A stretch of 32,000 nucleotides of DNA. It comes from Nitrososphaerota archaeon (GTDB lineage Archaea; Thermoproteota; Nitrososphaeria; Nitrososphaerales; Nitrosopumilaceae). Positions 5,315-23,173 of the stretch are shown piece by piece. The position numbers were made by a program, and so were the translations under genes. The stretch spans positions 25,007-57,006 of the forward strand of contig JADFLH010000002.1 of assembly GCA_022564515.1 (NCBI GenBank). Direction: 5' to 3'. Every line of letters begins with the position of its first letter. Position 1 is the stretch's first letter. Below the pieces are notes generated by a model, which saw only the letters and a list, made by a program, of their open reading frames with translations, did no database searches and was not told where the DNA came from.

Positions 5315-5809
5315 TTATGGGGTCATACCCAATTGAGCATTTTTGAATTTTGCCAAAGCTGCCAATTCATATTCGAATGATTCTTGAAGAAGTAAATTAG
5401 AACGAATCTTGAATGAACTATCTTGAGTTTCTATCCATTTGATATATTCTCCATAACTTTCAAGTTGAGTCTCAGTTGATAATTTGAATAGTTCAACTGA
5501 GGCAATGAAGGGTACTGGAGGAGTTAGTTTATCATACCTTGTAATAAGGCCCTCCAATCCTGAAATGTAAATTTGAGAATATTCTAAAAGCTCTTCTTTG
5601 CTCAGGTCTCCTTCTGTCCATTGTATTATCTTTGATTCATAATCATCTTGCATTTTTTTTAGGTCATTTTGGATTTGCAGTATTTTATTTCCAAAATTGA
5701 AACCCTTGATCTTGATTTGATCTATGTAATAATTATAGGCTATTATCCCCACTATAATGACCAAAGCAATTACAGCTAATACAATATTCTGCTTTTGTTT
5801 TTTTTTCAA
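5315..5809 (-). CDS. N-terminally membrane-anchored hypothetical protein (164 aa)
   Basis: Basic N-terminus followed by one TM helix (IVLAVIALVIIVGIIAY), then a helical soluble part. Confidence 0.55.
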   Translation of the reverse strand: MKKKQKQNIVLAVIALVIIVGIIAYNYYIDQIKIKGFNFGNKILQIQNDLKKMQDDYESKIIQWTEGDLSKEELLEYSQIYISGLEGLITRYDKLTPPVPFIASVELFKLSTETQLESYGEYIKWIETQDSSFKIRSNLLLQESFEYELAALAKFKNAQLGMTP

Positions 5810-5896
5810 AATTAATCGTTGATGTTTAAACTTTAAGTTGCTATTATTCTATTCTTTTCTCTTTAGCAGTTTGCATCAAATGTAAATGAAAAAATC

Positions 5897-15463: not shown

Positions 15464-16288
15464 TTGGATTTAAAATCAATCATTGGACTTGGCGTGGCAG
15501 GAAATTTCACCGGTCATCTGGAACAAGCAGGTGAAGCAGAAGATTTTGCAAATATTAAAGTTCAAGACGAAAAGGCGCCAAAGGGCTTGTTTCCTTTTTA
15601 TTCAAATTCCAAAACGGGAAAGTTCATAGAAATTTATCCATTATCATCGAGCAAAATTTCTAGGCCGCCAAAAGGCGAGAGCCTACAAATTGAACCAGAG
15701 GTAGCACTAATTTGCGAAATTTCTTATAATAAGGGTCAAGTCATTGATCTCAAACCAAAAAAATTTACGGCATTTAATGATTGCACCATTCGCAAGCCAG
15801 GAGCTAAGAAGATAAGTGAAAAGAAGAACTGGGGAAAAAACTCAAAGGGTATTTCCTTGACTCATATAGACATTGATGGATTCTCACGCGGAGGTGTAAT
15901 GGATACATACCGCCTTGCCTGTTATTTGAAAAGGGATAACGAATTGCATGAATATGGTATAGATAGTCCTCTTATTGGTTATAGCTATTTTTATGAGAAG
16001 CTGCTCAACTGGATAGTTTTTAAAATGAATACACAGAACGATGAAGGTCCTTTGGAATCCATTGCAATGCATTTGAAAGAGTCCGGATACCCTGCTAATG
16101 CAGTTATAGCGATTGGCTCAACACGCTATACCGAATTCGGCGAAAGTACGTTTCTAGATGTTGGAGATGAGAGTTTCATTATAATTTATGATTCAAAACT
16201 CCATACCAGAAGATCCGTTGAGAAACTTATACAAGATTCAAATTACACTGTTAGTGGGCTATCTATTTTACATCAAATAGTTGTTTGA
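15464..16288 (+). CDS. Conserved hypothetical protein (274 aa), possibly a distant fumarylacetoacetate-hydrolase-like fold
   Basis: Long clean ORF with a TTG start. The N-terminal GLGVAGNFTGHLEQAGE loosely resembles the G.N(Y/F)..H..E motif of FAH-family proteins; this is a weak call. Confidence 0.5.
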   Translation: MDLKSIIGLGVAGNFTGHLEQAGEAEDFANIKVQDEKAPKGLFPFYSNSKTGKFIEIYPLSSSKISRPPKGESLQIEPEVALICEISYNKGQVIDLKPKKFTAFNDCTIRKPGAKKISEKKNWGKNSKGISLTHIDIDGFSRGGVMDTYRLACYLKRDNELHEYGIDSPLIGYSYFYEKLLNWIVFKMNTQNDEGPLESIAMHLKESGYPANAVIAIGSTRYTEFGESTFLDVGDESFIIIYDSKLHTRRSVEKLIQDSNYTVSGLSILHQIVV

Positions 16289-16430
16289 ATTTTTGCCAAA
16301 TACCCCTAGCTAAAGCTCAGTGGACAAGTAATCTTTAATGACTGGAAAACAAACAGCAACCCGTTTCATAAATCTTGGAATCTTTTCAAGAAAAAGAAAA
16401 AGAGGTAGTTCTCCATTCAGGAGAATTTAG

Positions 16431-17567: not shown

Positions 17568-17636
17568 ACTTCACGTAGCTGACTTTTCTTATTATATAAC
17601 GTTAATTGTATTATTCCGGTTTATATCATCAATTTC

Positions 17637-17656
17637 AGATCTATGTAACTAGATCT
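17637..17656. promoter_or_regulatory. Palindrome AGATCTA-tgtaac-TAGATCT in the divergent FNT/LTD intergenic region; a third AGATCTA lies at 17717..17723
   Basis: Read directly from the sequence. It sits about 40 nt distal to the TATA-like ATTATATAA at about 17592..17600, which is itself about 25-33 nt upstream of the FNT ATG. Confidence 0.5.
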
Positions 17657-17853
17657 TTTATCTACAGTTAGTTGAGCAAAAAATGACAAAAATTTAGAGT
17701 TCGCTTACAATATAAAAGATCTAGCCATCTTATTGACTTTGTAAAGACAACATAAATTCTAATAAAATTCCCCGACATCGGGTAATTTGCATCCAGTCCA
17801 TGCACATGTGTTAAAAAAACCAATTTAAGGCTGTATAATATCACAAAAATGGT

Positions 17854-18813: not shown

Positions 18814-18938
18814 GGTTCTCATAAGAAAACATGTTTTGGTCAAGCTGTATAACACCTGTAAGAAATTTTCATCTTGTCAAGAAATTTTTATGTCTTGAAT
18901 TATTCAGCGCATTATTGTTATGTGTTTGATTGTACTGC

Positions 18939-18986
18939 GATCTAAATATTGATCGGTCGATCTAAATCGATCATGTAGATCTAAAT
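18939..18986 (+). repeat. Three exact direct copies of GATCTAAAT (starting at 18939, 18959, 18978) interleaved with further GATC sites, upstream of cynS
   Basis: Read directly: gcGATCTAAATattGATCggtcGATCTAAATcGATCatgtaGATCTAAATaaag. A TATA-like TATAATA at about 19011 follows, 29-36 nt before the ATG at 19047. Confidence 0.85.
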
Positions 18987-19046
18987 AAAGTAGCAATCCC
19001 AAAAAAAGAGTATAATACTACTTGATCGATTACACTATTGAGCAAT

Positions 19047-19598
19047 ATGGCAGATTTAGTAGTAACAGATGAAACCATAATGGCCGCAAAACTTGCTATG
19101 GAAGCAAAAGGATACAATTACACAGGCGCTGGCGGGAAGAAATCACTGGCAGCAGTCATTAAGAGAAATCCTGTATTCTTAGCTGCAGCAATAAATGGAG
19201 TGCAAAGACTTACAACCTCTGATGCGGACGCGATCGCAAATACTCTTGGCCTTTCGGCACAACAAAAGGCAGAGTACAATCGCCACCCAAGGAGAAAATT
19301 CTCAGCATTGCCAAATGATCCATTCAATTACAGATTGATAGAGGTCATAGCAAACTATGGGGATCCCGTAAGAGAGATTGTCAATGAATTGTTCAATGAC
19401 TTCACCCTCCCAGGAAGTGGAGATTCAGGACGTGGTGGAGACGGAATAATGAGTGCAATTGACTTTAGTTACCACGTCTTTAGACGTACAGAAGGTAACC
19501 AAATACCTGAAACAATATTACAAGAAGCAGATCCAAAGATGAACAACAGATGCACCATATTAATGGACGGCAAGTGGCTAAACTTCAAAGCATTCTAG
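19047..19598 (+). CDS. cynS: Cyanase (cyanate hydratase / cyanate lyase)
   Basis: Compared from memory with E. coli CynS: PNDPFNYRLIEVIANYG vs PTDPTMYRFYEMLQVYG, GDGIMSAIDF vs GDGIISAINF, and the C-terminal MDGKWLNFKAF vs LDGKYLPTKPF. The catalytic Arg, Glu and Ser are all present. The ATG at 19047 is preferred over the TTG at 19038. Confidence 0.85.
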   Translation: MADLVVTDETIMAAKLAMEAKGYNYTGAGGKKSLAAVIKRNPVFLAAAINGVQRLTTSDADAIANTLGLSAQQKAEYNRHPRRKFSALPNDPFNYRLIEVIANYGDPVREIVNELFNDFTLPGSGDSGRGGDGIMSAIDFSYHVFRRTEGNQIPETILQEADPKMNNRCTILMDGKWLNFKAF

Positions 19599-19832: not shown

Positions 19833-19994
19833 TCAATCTTCCACCGCTTTCCACTTTTTGCAACAAAAATAATACATTGTTCCTCTTGGTTCTTTACCCT
19901 CTTCAAAATATGATCCTACTCCTTGTAATCTCATTGGCTTACCGCATTCATCACAAATTGTTTCCTTTTCTTTGATTTCTTCTATTGTTTTCAA
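19833..19994 (-). CDS. Small zinc-ribbon-like protein (about 53 aa) with a putative TTG start overlapping the upstream stop
   Basis: My own translation gives (M)KTIEEIKEKETICDECGKPMRLQGVGSYFEEGKEPRGTMYYFCCKKWKAVED*. It has a CxxC ... CC pattern. The TTG at 19994..19992 overlaps the TGA at 19993..19991 of the 94-aa ORF. No ATG occurs before Met21, so this may instead be a frameshifted remnant. Confidence 0.3.
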   Translation of the reverse strand: MKTIEEIKEKETICDECGKPMRLQGVGSYFEEGKEPRGTMYYFCCKKWKAVED

Positions 19995-20275
19995 GTTGCA
20001 TCTTCCCTTGCATGAGAACTCGTTACTTCATTGGCTGCACTCCATACCATAGAACAATACCTGCATTTTTCTACATGCTTGGCTAAAAAGACCCCCTCTT
20101 GAAATCGAACGTCTTGTGGACTCAATCCTATTCTATGAGCCAAGTCCTCAACTCTTGCTCTCTTTTCTTCATCCATTTCAACTCCTTCTGCTATTTTTTC
20201 TAAAAGTGGATCATTTCTGAAAACATCTTCTTCATCAAAATTTTCCGAATGCAACAAGATAGAAAAAAGCTCCAT
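19991..20275 (-). CDS. Hypothetical acidic protein (94 aa) with one CxxC
   Basis: Clean ORF with an ATG start. No motif recognised apart from CRYC. Confidence 0.45.
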   Translation of the reverse strand: MELFSILLHSENFDEEDVFRNDPLLEKIAEGVEMDEEKRARVEDLAHRIGLSPQDVRFQEGVFLAKHVEKCRYCSMVWSAANEVTSSHAREDAT

Positions 20276-20620
20276 GAATAAAACATTGGTAATAAAAGGA
20301 ATTAGACAAACTAAGCTCTAACAAAACATATTTTCGACTACCTAGTCAAACGCAGTTTTTCAATCGTAAAAGCGATTAAAATTGCTTATCTACAGGCGTA
20401 AGTTTTCATCTTTCAAACCTGAATGGTCAAAAGTGGGATGCCATTCTCAATTAAATGTCGATCAGTCAACCGATTGCACTAAAGGATCAATCCTCAAGTG
20501 AATAGATCTTTTTTGCTAGGAGTGAAGTCTTTCATAATTTTGTATGGTGGAAAATCTACCTCATTTTACATGTTAAATCATAACTTAAGAATCGAAATAA
20601 ACAAGGGTCTAATTATTTTT

Positions 20621-21556
20621 TTATTTGTTTAACACATTATTTAATTCTAAAATGCTAGACTTTTTCTTTAATTCCTTGATAACTATAATATTGTCATCTA
20701 TCATTGAATGTGTATTTAGCCTAAATTTCATTAGCACATTTAAAAATTCAACTCGTTCTTCAGGATTCAGAGTTTCATTGGCCTCATTTATGAGACCATC
20801 CAGATTTGAAAGTAACATCCTCAGAACTAACAAAGACTTCTTGAATATTTTGATCTGTCGCTTTGGTGACGTATCTTGTTGTGAGGAAGTATTGTAATTA
20901 TAGTCACCAATAACTTGCTCTAACTCTATTTCCTTCTTCGAAGCTTTAGTGATCTCTCTAATGTTCTTAACGGACAAGTTTTCATCAATGATTGCATCTT
21001 TAAGCAATTGTTGGTACCCCTCATCCAGATTAACCAGTTCCATTGCATGAGAAACGCCAAGATTTTTTTGAGATATTTCATATAGGATCTCTTTTGGAAG
21101 TCTAAGTAACTGAATTCTGGCAGAGATGTTTTGCTCGCTTTTGGAAATGACTTTTGCTAGATGAGAAACTCCTCCCCAACCATAGTCCACGATGTATTTC
21201 TTGAAAGCCTCTGCCTCTTCTATAGGATCAAGACTTTTTCTTTGTATATTTTCAACAAGCTGGATTTCAAACGCTGCCTTGTCAGACAGTATCCTAACAA
21301 TACAGGGAATTTTTTTCCACCTTAAGAGTTTACATGCATTATATCTTCGGTGACCTGAAACTATTTCAAAACCTACTTCTGCTGGTCTGACCGTTATGGG
21401 TTGAATAAGGCCATGCTCCCGTATGCTTGCAGCTAATTCCCTTTTTGCATCAACTTGAACAATTAGAGAATTTCCTGTCCTGACTGTTAGCACTGCAGGT
21501 TTTATGCTGCGAATTTCAATGAGGTCTTGAATAGATTGGTCAGTAATAAGGATCAT
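20621..21556 (-). CDS. ParB/Spo0J-like protein (N-terminal ParB/Srx domain, HTH, helical C-terminal region); no ParA partner nearby
   Basis: LAASIREHGLIQPITVRP....FEIVSGHRRYNACKLL is the ParB N-terminal box including the GxRR motif. IQLVENIQRKSLDPIEEAEAF and the HTH-like VSHLAKVISKSEQNISARIQLLRLP follow. Confidence 0.8.
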   Translation of the reverse strand: MILITDQSIQDLIEIRSIKPAVLTVRTGNSLIVQVDAKRELAASIREHGLIQPITVRPAEVGFEIVSGHRRYNACKLLRWKKIPCIVRILSDKAAFEIQLVENIQRKSLDPIEEAEAFKKYIVDYGWGGVSHLAKVISKSEQNISARIQLLRLPKEILYEISQKNLGVSHAMELVNLDEGYQQLLKDAIIDENLSVKNIREITKASKKEIELEQVIGDYNYNTSSQQDTSPKRQIKIFKKSLLVLRMLLSNLDGLINEANETLNPEERVEFLNVLMKFRLNTHSMIDDNIIVIKELKKKSSILELNNVLNK

Positions 21557-22193: not shown

Positions 22194-22279
22194 TGGCCAA
22201 AAATCGAGTCCATGTATAAGACCTGATTTTGTACATGAGATGTAGATCTTATATACCGACAGCAAGATTATCTTTTTGA

Positions 22280-23173
22280 TTGGATTACCAAAAATATGAA
22301 AAAATGCCTCTTGAAAGGGAGGTATTGTGGCAAGGTCCAGTAAAAATAGACCAAAGTTTCGTTAAACATCTTTCAGACTCAGACCATCATGAAGATTTTC
22401 AAATATACACAATAAGAGATTCTAAATATCATAAGGAGGATAATGGACAATATGACAACACCGAATTGGTGGGAGATTTTCCTAACACGGTAACAGTAAT
22501 TGTAAAAGGTAAAGAAATTTTGGATTATATGCAGTGTTCCGCATTTAAGGACTATGAATATGTGGAGAGGACTAAGGGATTCTTCTTCAAGGCCGGTGTA
22601 AAAAAAAGGATAGTGGTTAAAGGCTTTGTCCTTGAACCTCTTTCAGATACTAAAGTAGTGGATCATGCATGCTTAGCCTCAATTCAATTCGATAATCAAG
22701 AAACTGGCAACGAAATACAATGGAATTTCGTTCATACGGGACTAACCGATAAATTTGTTTCAGAAAGTGATTTTTTTACTTTGGGGGGATCATTTACTCT
22801 AGAAAAGTTGGGATTGGCAGGGTTCGCCTCAGGCTCTCATGGTTCAACTATCACCTTCGCTACCGACCCCAAACACTCCGCAACAATTGCTTTCGTTGCT
22901 TCAGACTCTAAGCCTTTCACAGTACTCCTTTATTCCAAATACGGAACGAGGAGGCTTACATACACCAATGCTGGGTTGAAGACAGAGGAGTGGAAACCAG
23001 AAGAACTCACAGACCCAGCTCCAAAGTCAGGGCAGTCAGAAGCCTCCAACGATGCGTTAAAGATTCTTAATACTCGACTCGCTAGAGGAGAATTAACGAT
23101 ATACGAGTATGAGGAGCTTCGAAAGGCAATAGAAGGTGAAAATCGCCATTCTTATACTGACTATTGGGCATAA
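22280..23173 (+). CDS. Protein with an uncharacterised beta-rich N-terminal region and a C-terminal SHOCT domain
   Basis: The C-terminal ALKILNTRLARGELTIYEYEELRKAIEG fits the SHOCT pattern (L..L..L...G.I(T)..E(Y/F)...K..L). The TTG at 22280 lies about 25-30 nt downstream of the TATA-like TTATATA at about 22249. The alternative ATG is at 22304. Confidence 0.65.
   Translation: MDYQKYEKMPLEREVLWQGPVKIDQSFVKHLSDSDHHEDFQIYTIRDSKYHKEDNGQYDNTELVGDFPNTVTVIVKGKEILDYMQCSAFKDYEYVERTKGFFFKAGVKKRIVVKGFVLEPLSDTKVVDHACLASIQFDNQETGNEIQWNFVHTGLTDKFVSESDFFTLGGSFTLEKLGLAGFASGSHGSTITFATDPKHSATIAFVASDSKPFTVLLYSKYGTRRLTYTNAGLKTEEWKPEELTDPAPKSGQSEASNDALKILNTRLARGELTIYEYEELRKAIEGENRHSYTDYWA

Follow-up and report, generated by a model that had tools for sequence, protein, structure and literature searches.

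The promoter region of cynS in the stretch of DNA analyzed here, 32,000 nucleotides in length (the window), carries a dense cluster of GATC-bearing repeats. The cluster is real and statistically unusual, it lies on and beside the putative core promoter of a cyanase gene, and it is confined to one lineage of marine-type ammonia-oxidizing archaea. We favor, tentatively and at somewhat less than even confidence, the possibility that this array serves this one lineage as a methylated cluster of operator-like sites on the cynS promoter and works with a putative binding factor.

A sequence scan of the window placed six GATC sites here, starting at 18939, 18951, 18959, 18969, 18978, and 19024. None of 2,000 dinucleotide shuffles contained five GATC sites in 45 bp, one of 2,000 contained six in 90 bp, and any non-overlapping exact triple 9-mer within 60 bp appeared in 5 of 1,000 shuffles (p ~0.005). 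The maximum in 233 kb of other ammonia-oxidizing-archaeal loci was three GATC per 45 bp. The window as a whole is not enriched (98 GATC observed versus 112 expected), and its totals for GATC, GATCTA, and AGATCT equal chance expectation. An initial annotation of this DNA had put the background at about one GATC per 300 bp, close to the 98 per 32 kb that we measured (~1 per 327 bp), and had called the cluster strongly non-random, a judgment borne out by the shuffles and the 233-kb comparison.

The cyanase module and its rearrangements

The window has a G+C content of ~35%, and its closest database relatives bear Nitrosopumilaceae names. Its housekeeping genes include ileS, purD, sucCD, and the gene for arginine decarboxylase. 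The cyn module is located in the variable stretch that separates TrmB from sucCD. Its order is DUF5718, FNT (a formate/nitrite-type transporter, on the minus strand), LTD (a lamin-tail-domain protein), cynS, a 94-aa ORF, and the genes for a ParB-like and a SHOCT-domain protein. Relatives without cyn genes keep the flanks, TrmB included, and have different genes in between; since it is kept there, TrmB is a core neighbor and not a module regulator. We rejected it as a regulator on this ground and because the regions upstream of TrmB itself and of DUF5718 contain no GATC. An Rfam scan of the window returned two tRNAs only. A replication origin with iterons was also rejected, given no initiator among the ORFs scanned, no skew switch, and an ordinary chromosomal gene context, and a scan for sigma-70 promoters and intrinsic terminators was set aside as irrelevant to an archaeal promoter.

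The gene downstream of the array (19047..19598, plus strand, ATG at 19047) had been annotated as cynS, and this identification stands: its 183-aa product matches the cyanate-lyase C-terminal domain PF02560 (E=7e-20) and has 13 homologues at E<=1e-20. The cyanase is an atypical one, scoring 70-82 bits versus NCBIfam cynS cutoffs of 113-150, and no CYNS_N domain is detectable in the 183 residues. Its database relatives number about a dozen, and most come from sediment MAGs and the symbionts of sponges. When 70 complete genomes of nitrifiers (AOA, AOB, NOB, and comammox) were surveyed in 2023, Ca. Nitrososphaera gargensis was the one AOA in which cynS was found (PMC10753782).

Gene order within the module varies among relatives. 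The related loci L003, L004, and L019 have FNT and LTD on the minus strand set opposite a plus-strand cynS, and the window has both LTD and cynS on the plus strand. Because LTD points away from cynS in those three loci, the LTD-cynS spacer of the window lineage is a new junction. In L017, the one moderately diverged relative that keeps the array, the FNT-LTD-cynS block is inverted relative to ParB. Positions 877-1107 of L017 show the 3' flank of ParB fused to the 3' flank of FNT (window ~16300-16320 and 20513-20525), which implies that a ~4.2-kb block, FNT-LTD-cynS-orf94, was inverted between inverted copies of CCTAGCNAAAG. The cyn module is thus structurally polymorphic within the population.

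A recombination breakpoint relative to L017 is also seen at the 3' edge of the array, at ~19031. Identity between L017 and the window is 96.0% in the FNT coding region, 92.4% in the FNT-LTD spacer, 95.6% in the LTD coding region, 95.9% in the non-repeat part of the LTD-cynS spacer, and 96.9% in the array, and it is 86.7% over 19032-19046 and 77.2% in the cynS coding region. This pattern looks like an allelic replacement of cynS via recombination, with the crossover within the promoter. Taken gene against gene, cynS at 19047-19598 and its counterpart at 3731-4288 of L017 share 77% nucleotide and 74% protein identity, compared to 92-97% for the flanking FNT, LTD, and spacer DNA.

Several smaller features of the module were recorded. 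The DUF5718 protein (15464-16288) adjoins the cyn module, and L019 retains, between LTD and cynS (5618-5839), a 73-aa remnant of a protein of that family; an older association of DUF5718 with the cyanase cluster is hinted at. Between cynS and ParB, at 19833-20275 on the minus strand, are two small, lineage-specific ORFs that overlap by TTGA, which holds the stop of one and the start of the other. The 94-aa ORF carries an HTH-like segment, LAHRIGLSPQDV, and the 53-aa ORF has CxxC...CC. We considered orf94 (19994-20275, minus) as a lineage-specific small regulator and make no call, its only homologues being a handful of 57- to 75-aa proteins and its structural model being of low confidence (pLDDT 46).

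Anatomy, variation, and distribution of the array

Two motifs, not one, are interleaved in the array: motif A, GATCTAAAT, and motif B, TGATCGATT. Motif A is present in three exact copies, at 18939, 18959, and 18978, all in direct orientation with spacings of 20 and 19 nt. Motif B is found at 19023-19031 on the plus strand and at 18965-18973 on the minus strand, with a degenerate copy at 18950-18958. What the repeats share is a core of only 9-12 nt, the spacers being unlike one another, and Tandem Repeats Finder (score >=30) called no tandem array, so that head-to-tail iterons are not seen.

Along the plus strand, repeat A1 (18939..18947; GATCTAAAT in the context TGCGATCTAAAT) is an exact match and is invariant in the 11 aligned near-identical sequences and in L017. 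Repeat B1 (18950..18958, plus) reads TGATCGGTC, a degenerate TGATCGATT; in three contigs a GGTC-to-GATC change converts it to TGATCGATC, which creates (GATC)3 and a seventh site. Repeat A2 (18959..18967, plus) reads GATCTAAAT in the window; nine of the 11 aligned near-identical sequences have GATCTAAAG here, and L017 shares the final G. Next comes the left arm of a 14-nt inverted repeat, AATCGATCATGTAG (18965..18978, plus), which includes B2, AATCGATCA, the reverse complement of TGATCGATT. Repeat A3 (18976..18986) has a palindromic core, TAGATCTA, at 18976-18983; the sequence at A3, ATGTAGATCTAAAT, is a 12/14 palindrome, and A1 and A2 are non-palindromic. The right arm, CTACTTGATCGATT (19018..19031, plus), lies downstream of the TATA box and ahead of the ATG; within it are B3 (TGATCGATT) and the sixth GATC. 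The two arms are complementary at 13 of 14 positions with 39 nt between them, and they form the central helix of both the DNA and RNA folds. They bracket the putative BRE/TATA of cynS, AAAAAAGAGTATAATA (19003..19017, plus), as read from the sequence.

Repeated sites above chance thus overlap and flank the putative core promoter. Measured from the TATA-like box GTATAATA (19010-19017), the three copies of GATCTAAAT are 24-71 bp upstream and one further site is 6-14 bp downstream. The annotation had regarded the array as positioned to control cynS, and this placement agrees with that view: the sites are found beside the core promoter and within it, three upstream of the TATA box and one between it and the ATG. 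The TATA-like box, the sixth GATC before the ATG, and the imperfect tandem upstream are all present in the sequence as it had described them. The tandem, a 19-nt unit reading AAGAAATTTTCAT / AAGAAATTTTTAT with a T5 run (18860..18898, plus), forms a direct repeat (D3; 18860 and 18879) and a hairpin (I10); LTD probably has its terminator here. The helical phasing that had been proposed for the GATC sites holds only approximately: the best-fit period is 9.65 bp, and a helical repeat of 10.5 bp gives a resultant R of 0.65. The same GTATAATA box is found at LTD (17833-17840) and at cynS (19010-19017), 36-37 nt before TTG 17869 and ATG 19047, respectively, which suggests that the two genes may share a similar promoter geometry and a short 5' leader.

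More than 20 near-identical metagenomic contigs carry the array. The alignment of 11 near-identical sequences has eight variable columns, six of them in the 233-bp intergenic region and two inside repeats. The GATC and GATCTA cores are unchanged across the near-identical contigs and L017, and SNPs fall at flanking repeat positions. Since most aligned strains differ in copy 2, the triple repeat that had been described as exact is best seen as an allele; it is exact in the window and in only one other contig.

Whether the array is conserved can be judged against L017 only, because searches with CynS in genome contigs and metagenomes recovered relatives that are either near-identical or at most 75% identical, with none intermediate. 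In that comparison the array shows no excess conservation over the adjacent non-repeat intergenic DNA (96.9% versus 95.9%). No GATC array lies upstream of the orthologous cynS genes of L001-L004, L019, L149-L152, L156, and L157. These array-less loci include L019, with 75% CynS identity, the sponge-symbiont loci L001-L004, with 64-67%, and Nitrososphaeraceae-type loci with a canonical cyanase. The LTD-cynS spacer has zero homology to the cynS upstream region of L019, and the same is true for all more distant cynS loci. The annotation had accepted that its proposal would be refuted if orthologous cynS loci lacked a comparable array, and loci at 64-75% CynS identity do lack one. Being restricted to one lineage, the array is at most a local regulatory add-on.

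The core of the array recurs elsewhere in the module. When the array is masked, the 6-mer and 7-mer most enriched in the intergenic DNA of the module are still AGATCT and AGATCTA, respectively. Of the 10 copies of AGATCTA in the window, 5 fall within these 1.7 kb (p=2e-5 in a directed test), and the remaining 3.7 kb of intergenic sequence contains none. Recurrence of the motif in other promoters of the module is thus significant as a directed test and not as an unbiased k-mer search, in which the enrichment fails Bonferroni correction (0.09-0.15). At 17637..17656 is a palindromic pair, AGATCTA-N6-TAGATCT, 38-57 bp upstream of the putative FNT TATA box, so that the FNT promoter has upstream of it an 18-bp palindrome, GATCTA-N6-TAGATC, whose GATCTA cores are kept in L017. 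A minus-strand copy, ATAAAAGATCTAG (17712..17724), forms a perfect 13-nt inverted repeat (I16) with CTAGATCTTTTAT at 17649-17661. Two plus-strand copies of TAGATCTT complete the set, one in the ParB 3' flank (20502..20509), 3 bp from the inversion junction relative to L017, and the other abutting the TATATA box of the SHOCT-domain gene (22242..22249). The FNT-LTD spacer holds a 76-bp unit (17649-17724) between CTAGATCTTTTAT and ATAAAAGATCTAG, with a third similar terminus at 20498-20512; the unit may represent a paired operator or a very small MITE-like element. A scan of viral contigs for GATCTAAA-N9-13-GATCTAAA was uninformative, giving >120 scattered AT-rich matches, none linked to the locus.

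The ParB-like gene and a conserved palindrome

The ParB-like gene (20621..21556, minus strand) encodes a protein with ParB_N and HTH_ParB domains and a GHRRY box, the GxRR arginine box, a CTP-binding motif. The best solved relatives of the protein are Noc and Spo0J, with a weaker match to KorB, and it is a bona fide ParB/Noc-type protein. No ParA gene was found among the window ORFs scanned. The SHOCT-domain protein (~290 aa) is encoded at 22280-23173 on the plus strand.

Both genes are conserved members of the cyanase module. They are syntenic with cynS and FNT in every lineage sampled (L149-L152, L156, L157, L003, L004, and L146-148), and eight further ParB homologues from Nitrosopumilaceae and Nitrososphaeraceae (54-64% identity) all (8/8) lie within FNT - x - CynS - SHOCT - ParB modules. 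This association suggests a ParB-family regulator of archaeal cyanate metabolism. Our literature search found no paper joining cyanase, ParB, and Nitrososphaera.

A second sequence element, outside the array, follows the module far more closely. The palindrome ATTCCCCGACATCGGGTAAT (17767..17786) occurs once per locus: as the 20-bp sequence ATTACCCGAnnTCGGGTAAT, with the core TTACCCG-N4-CGGGTAA (at most two mismatches), it is present in exactly one copy in 13/13 cyn loci spanning Nitrosopumilaceae and Nitrososphaeraceae, and the core is absent from both 20-kb cyn-less control loci. Positions in other loci are 9894 in L001, 5661 in L003, 5656 in L004, 5163 in L019, 20059 in L148, 7364 in L149, 8014 in L151, 8104 in L152, 5367 in L156, and 1762 in L157. 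In every case it lies in a promoter region, that of LTD/FNT or that of cynS; in the window it lies 84 bp before the LTD start and 1.2 kb upstream of the array. Its half-site, ATTACCC, resembles the Noc site, ATTTCCC. We consider the 20-bp palindrome a strong candidate for the conserved operator of archaeal cyanase clusters, to which the GATC array would be an add-on, and a likelier site for the ParB-like protein than the array.

Candidate binding factors and alternative explanations

GATC carries N6-methyladenine (m6A) at >99% of sites in Ca. Nitrosomarinus catalina, an activity assigned to Nmar_1319 homologues, and GATC m6A has also been reported in Nitrosoarchaeum and in marine Thaumarchaeota MAGs (PMC11033074, PMC8919816). 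Since Nitrosopumilaceae methylate GATC, the array is expected to be heavily methylated, and because GATC is an m6A target in this family, the annotation's suggestion of a cluster of methylation-sensitive sites is a live option.

As we picture it, the array would be a young cis-regulatory cluster of GATC-centered half-sites on the cynS promoter, with three direct GATCTA(AAT) half-sites and an inverted pair of TGATCGATT bracketing the BRE/TATA. A putative DNA-binding protein would read the core (T)AGATCT(A)/CGATC. At the upstream sites it might modulate the recruitment of TBP and TFB; at the one that follows the TATA box and precedes the ATG, it might block RNA polymerase. Every site is expected to bear N6-methyladenine because the family methylates GATC, and binding would be either methylation-tolerant or methylation-tuned. 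The earlier proposal of a cooperative operator array is thus partly sustained: the cluster is non-random, sits on the cynS core promoter, and has a core that recurs in the module, but orthologues are without the array, and the binders proposed for it are ill-fitting. TrmB, the stand-alone Lrp domain, and the ParB-like protein are all poor candidates. The Lrp domain is 12 kb off among unrelated genes, and the ParB-like protein is conserved with cynS in array-less lineages and has a better candidate site elsewhere. No binding protein for the array was assignable from the sequence.

The array might instead be a neutral by-product of local DNA turnover, an explanation that we regard as somewhat less likely though a serious one. 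Inversion of LTD would have made the new LTD-cynS junction, the repeats would stem from short duplications or from slippage of a GATC-bearing 19-20-bp unit and (GATC)n, and they would persist because they are young and not because they are used. A gene order unlike that of all other cyn loci, the further 4-kb inversion in L017 and the breakpoint at the 3' edge of the array, the strain differences (GGTC/GATC leading to (GATC)3, and the last base of copy 2), a spacer without homology to the L019 cynS upstream region, and array conservation not above background all agree with this account. However, Tandem Repeats Finder saw no tandem structure, and simple duplication explains neither the inverted TGATCGATT pair around the TATA box nor why four further intergenic regions of the module contain AGATCTA. 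Another reading, in which AGATCTA-type sites are recombination sites or the termini of a small mobile element that drives the module inversions, seems to us very improbable. Copies of this type are found near both ends of the LTD segment (17632-17656 and 18976-18987), one is 3 bp from the ParB-flank inversion junction, and the 76-bp unit has perfect 13-nt terminal inverted repeats; yet LTD has a single orientation in all 20+ contigs, the L017 junction is at the CCTAGCNAAAG repeat and not at AGATCT, and no recombinase is encoded nearby, the closest being a weak Zn_ribbon_recom match (E=0.008) of the 53-aa ORF. It is about equally hard to credit that the array acts as RNA, as the 5' arm of a structure in an LTD-cynS read-through transcript in which 18930-18978 pairs with 19018-19068 and occludes the cynS start codon. 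The fold of 18930-19075 has a predicted energy of -29.6 kcal/mol (z=-2.3; 1 of 200 shuffles as stable), and its nested helices include CAAUAU beside the AUG, but palindromic GATC content inflates such self-complementarity, the natural variants 18967 T>G and 18948 A>C and the L017 differences at 19031-19035 break pairs uncompensated, and the region has no Rfam match that would mark it as a structured RNA.

Methylation might also matter by itself. A dense m6A patch, with up to 12 methyl groups in 45 bp, could alter DNA stability or curvature, or be read by a methyl-sensitive factor, so that cynS would follow the replication or methylation state, as Dam-dependent promoters do in enterobacteria. 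GATC m6A is near-universal in the family; GATC is all that the two repeat types share, it does not vary among strains, and one strain variant gains a GATC rather than losing one. We nevertheless think this improbable, as the window encodes neither a reader of hemimethylated or unmethylated GATC nor the methyltransferase itself and as the flanks CTAAAT and CGATT are repeated too, which methylation alone would not need. Docking of a ParB/Noc-like CTP-binding protein is the other specific mechanism that we weighed, and we give it little credence: the array would be a docking or roadblock site akin to KorB operators or plasmid centromere iterons, where ParB that had loaded in the vicinity would be retained on the cynS promoter. 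The module does encode, 1.6 kb from the array, a protein with ParB_N and HTH_ParB domains and a GHRRY box, its gene is syntenic with cynS in all lineages sampled, and ATGTAGATCTAAAT is a 12/14 palindrome of parS/NBS size with ATxT...AAAT outer arms. However, two of the three GATCTAAAT copies are non-palindromic and do not form palindromes of 13-16 bp; the lineages with 54-64% identical ParB have no GATC array and all share TTACCCG-N4-CGGGTAA instead; and with ParB present and the array absent in 8+ other lineages sampled, site and gene do not co-occur. There is a slender chance that the two mechanisms act jointly on cynS: a CTP-dependent ParB/Noc-like clamp would load at the conserved palindrome, 1.2 kb upstream, and be stopped or retained where it meets the methylated GATC patch of the array. 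Such an arrangement would regulate an archaeal metabolic operon over a long range, in the manner of KorB, and would add an epigenetic input.

The operator-like cluster that we favor has partial counterparts among known systems. Enterobacteria have Dam-dependent GATC clusters, such as pap GATC-I/II with Lrp, agn43 with OxyR, and the SeqA sites at oriC and dnaA. Like these, the array has several GATC sites about one helical turn apart on or beside a promoter, in a family that methylates GATC adenine; unlike them, it is in an archaeon, on a TBP/TFB promoter, its flanking bases are repeated as well, and SeqA, OxyR, and a promoter-linked Lrp were not found here. To our knowledge, there is no archaeal reader of hemimethylated or unmethylated GATC and no established archaeal case of methylation-dependent transcription switching. 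Archaeal multi-site operators include the three regularly spaced Ss-LrpB boxes, the NrpR/MDR1 operators that overlap the TATA box or transcription start, and the TrmB/TrmBL1 palindromes. The array resembles them in having short repeated sites upstream and just downstream of the TATA box, ~1-2 helical turns apart, and a palindromic form of the core in a neighboring promoter, but here a cognate regulator was not found and the array is not conserved in orthologous promoters. Neither GATCTA nor TGATCGATT matches any published consensus known to us.

Sites of the ParB family (parS, Noc NBS, and KorB OB) invite comparison through the ParB/Noc-like gene 1.6 kb away and the single 14-bp near-palindrome of parS size, and plasmid parC/parH arrays likewise have direct repeats beside a promoter; unlike such sites, however, the array does not covary with the ParB gene, and the palindrome at 17767-17786 is the better parS/NBS analogue. 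Bacterial cyn genes are controlled by CynR at cynTSX and by NtcA at cynABDS. The window is similar in pairing a cyanase gene with a transporter of the cyanate/nitrite type and, presumptively, in promoter-proximal control of that gene, and it differs in lacking a LysR or NtcA homologue and in promoter type, motif, and likely regulator class (ParB-like). We know of no transcription factor tied to an archaeal cyanase gene and of no account of how ammonia-oxidizing archaea regulate their use of organic nitrogen (cyanate and urea). If functional, the array would be a tractable, lineage-specific promoter variant with which to ask whether GATC methylation affects archaeal transcription, and a route to the factor controlling cynS. 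The more general result of the comparison is the conservation of a ParB/Noc-like gene, a SHOCT-domain gene, and a near-invariant 20-bp palindrome in archaeal cyanase clusters; this ParB-palindrome-cyanase module points to a possible regulatory logic not previously described, and it merits more attention than the array.
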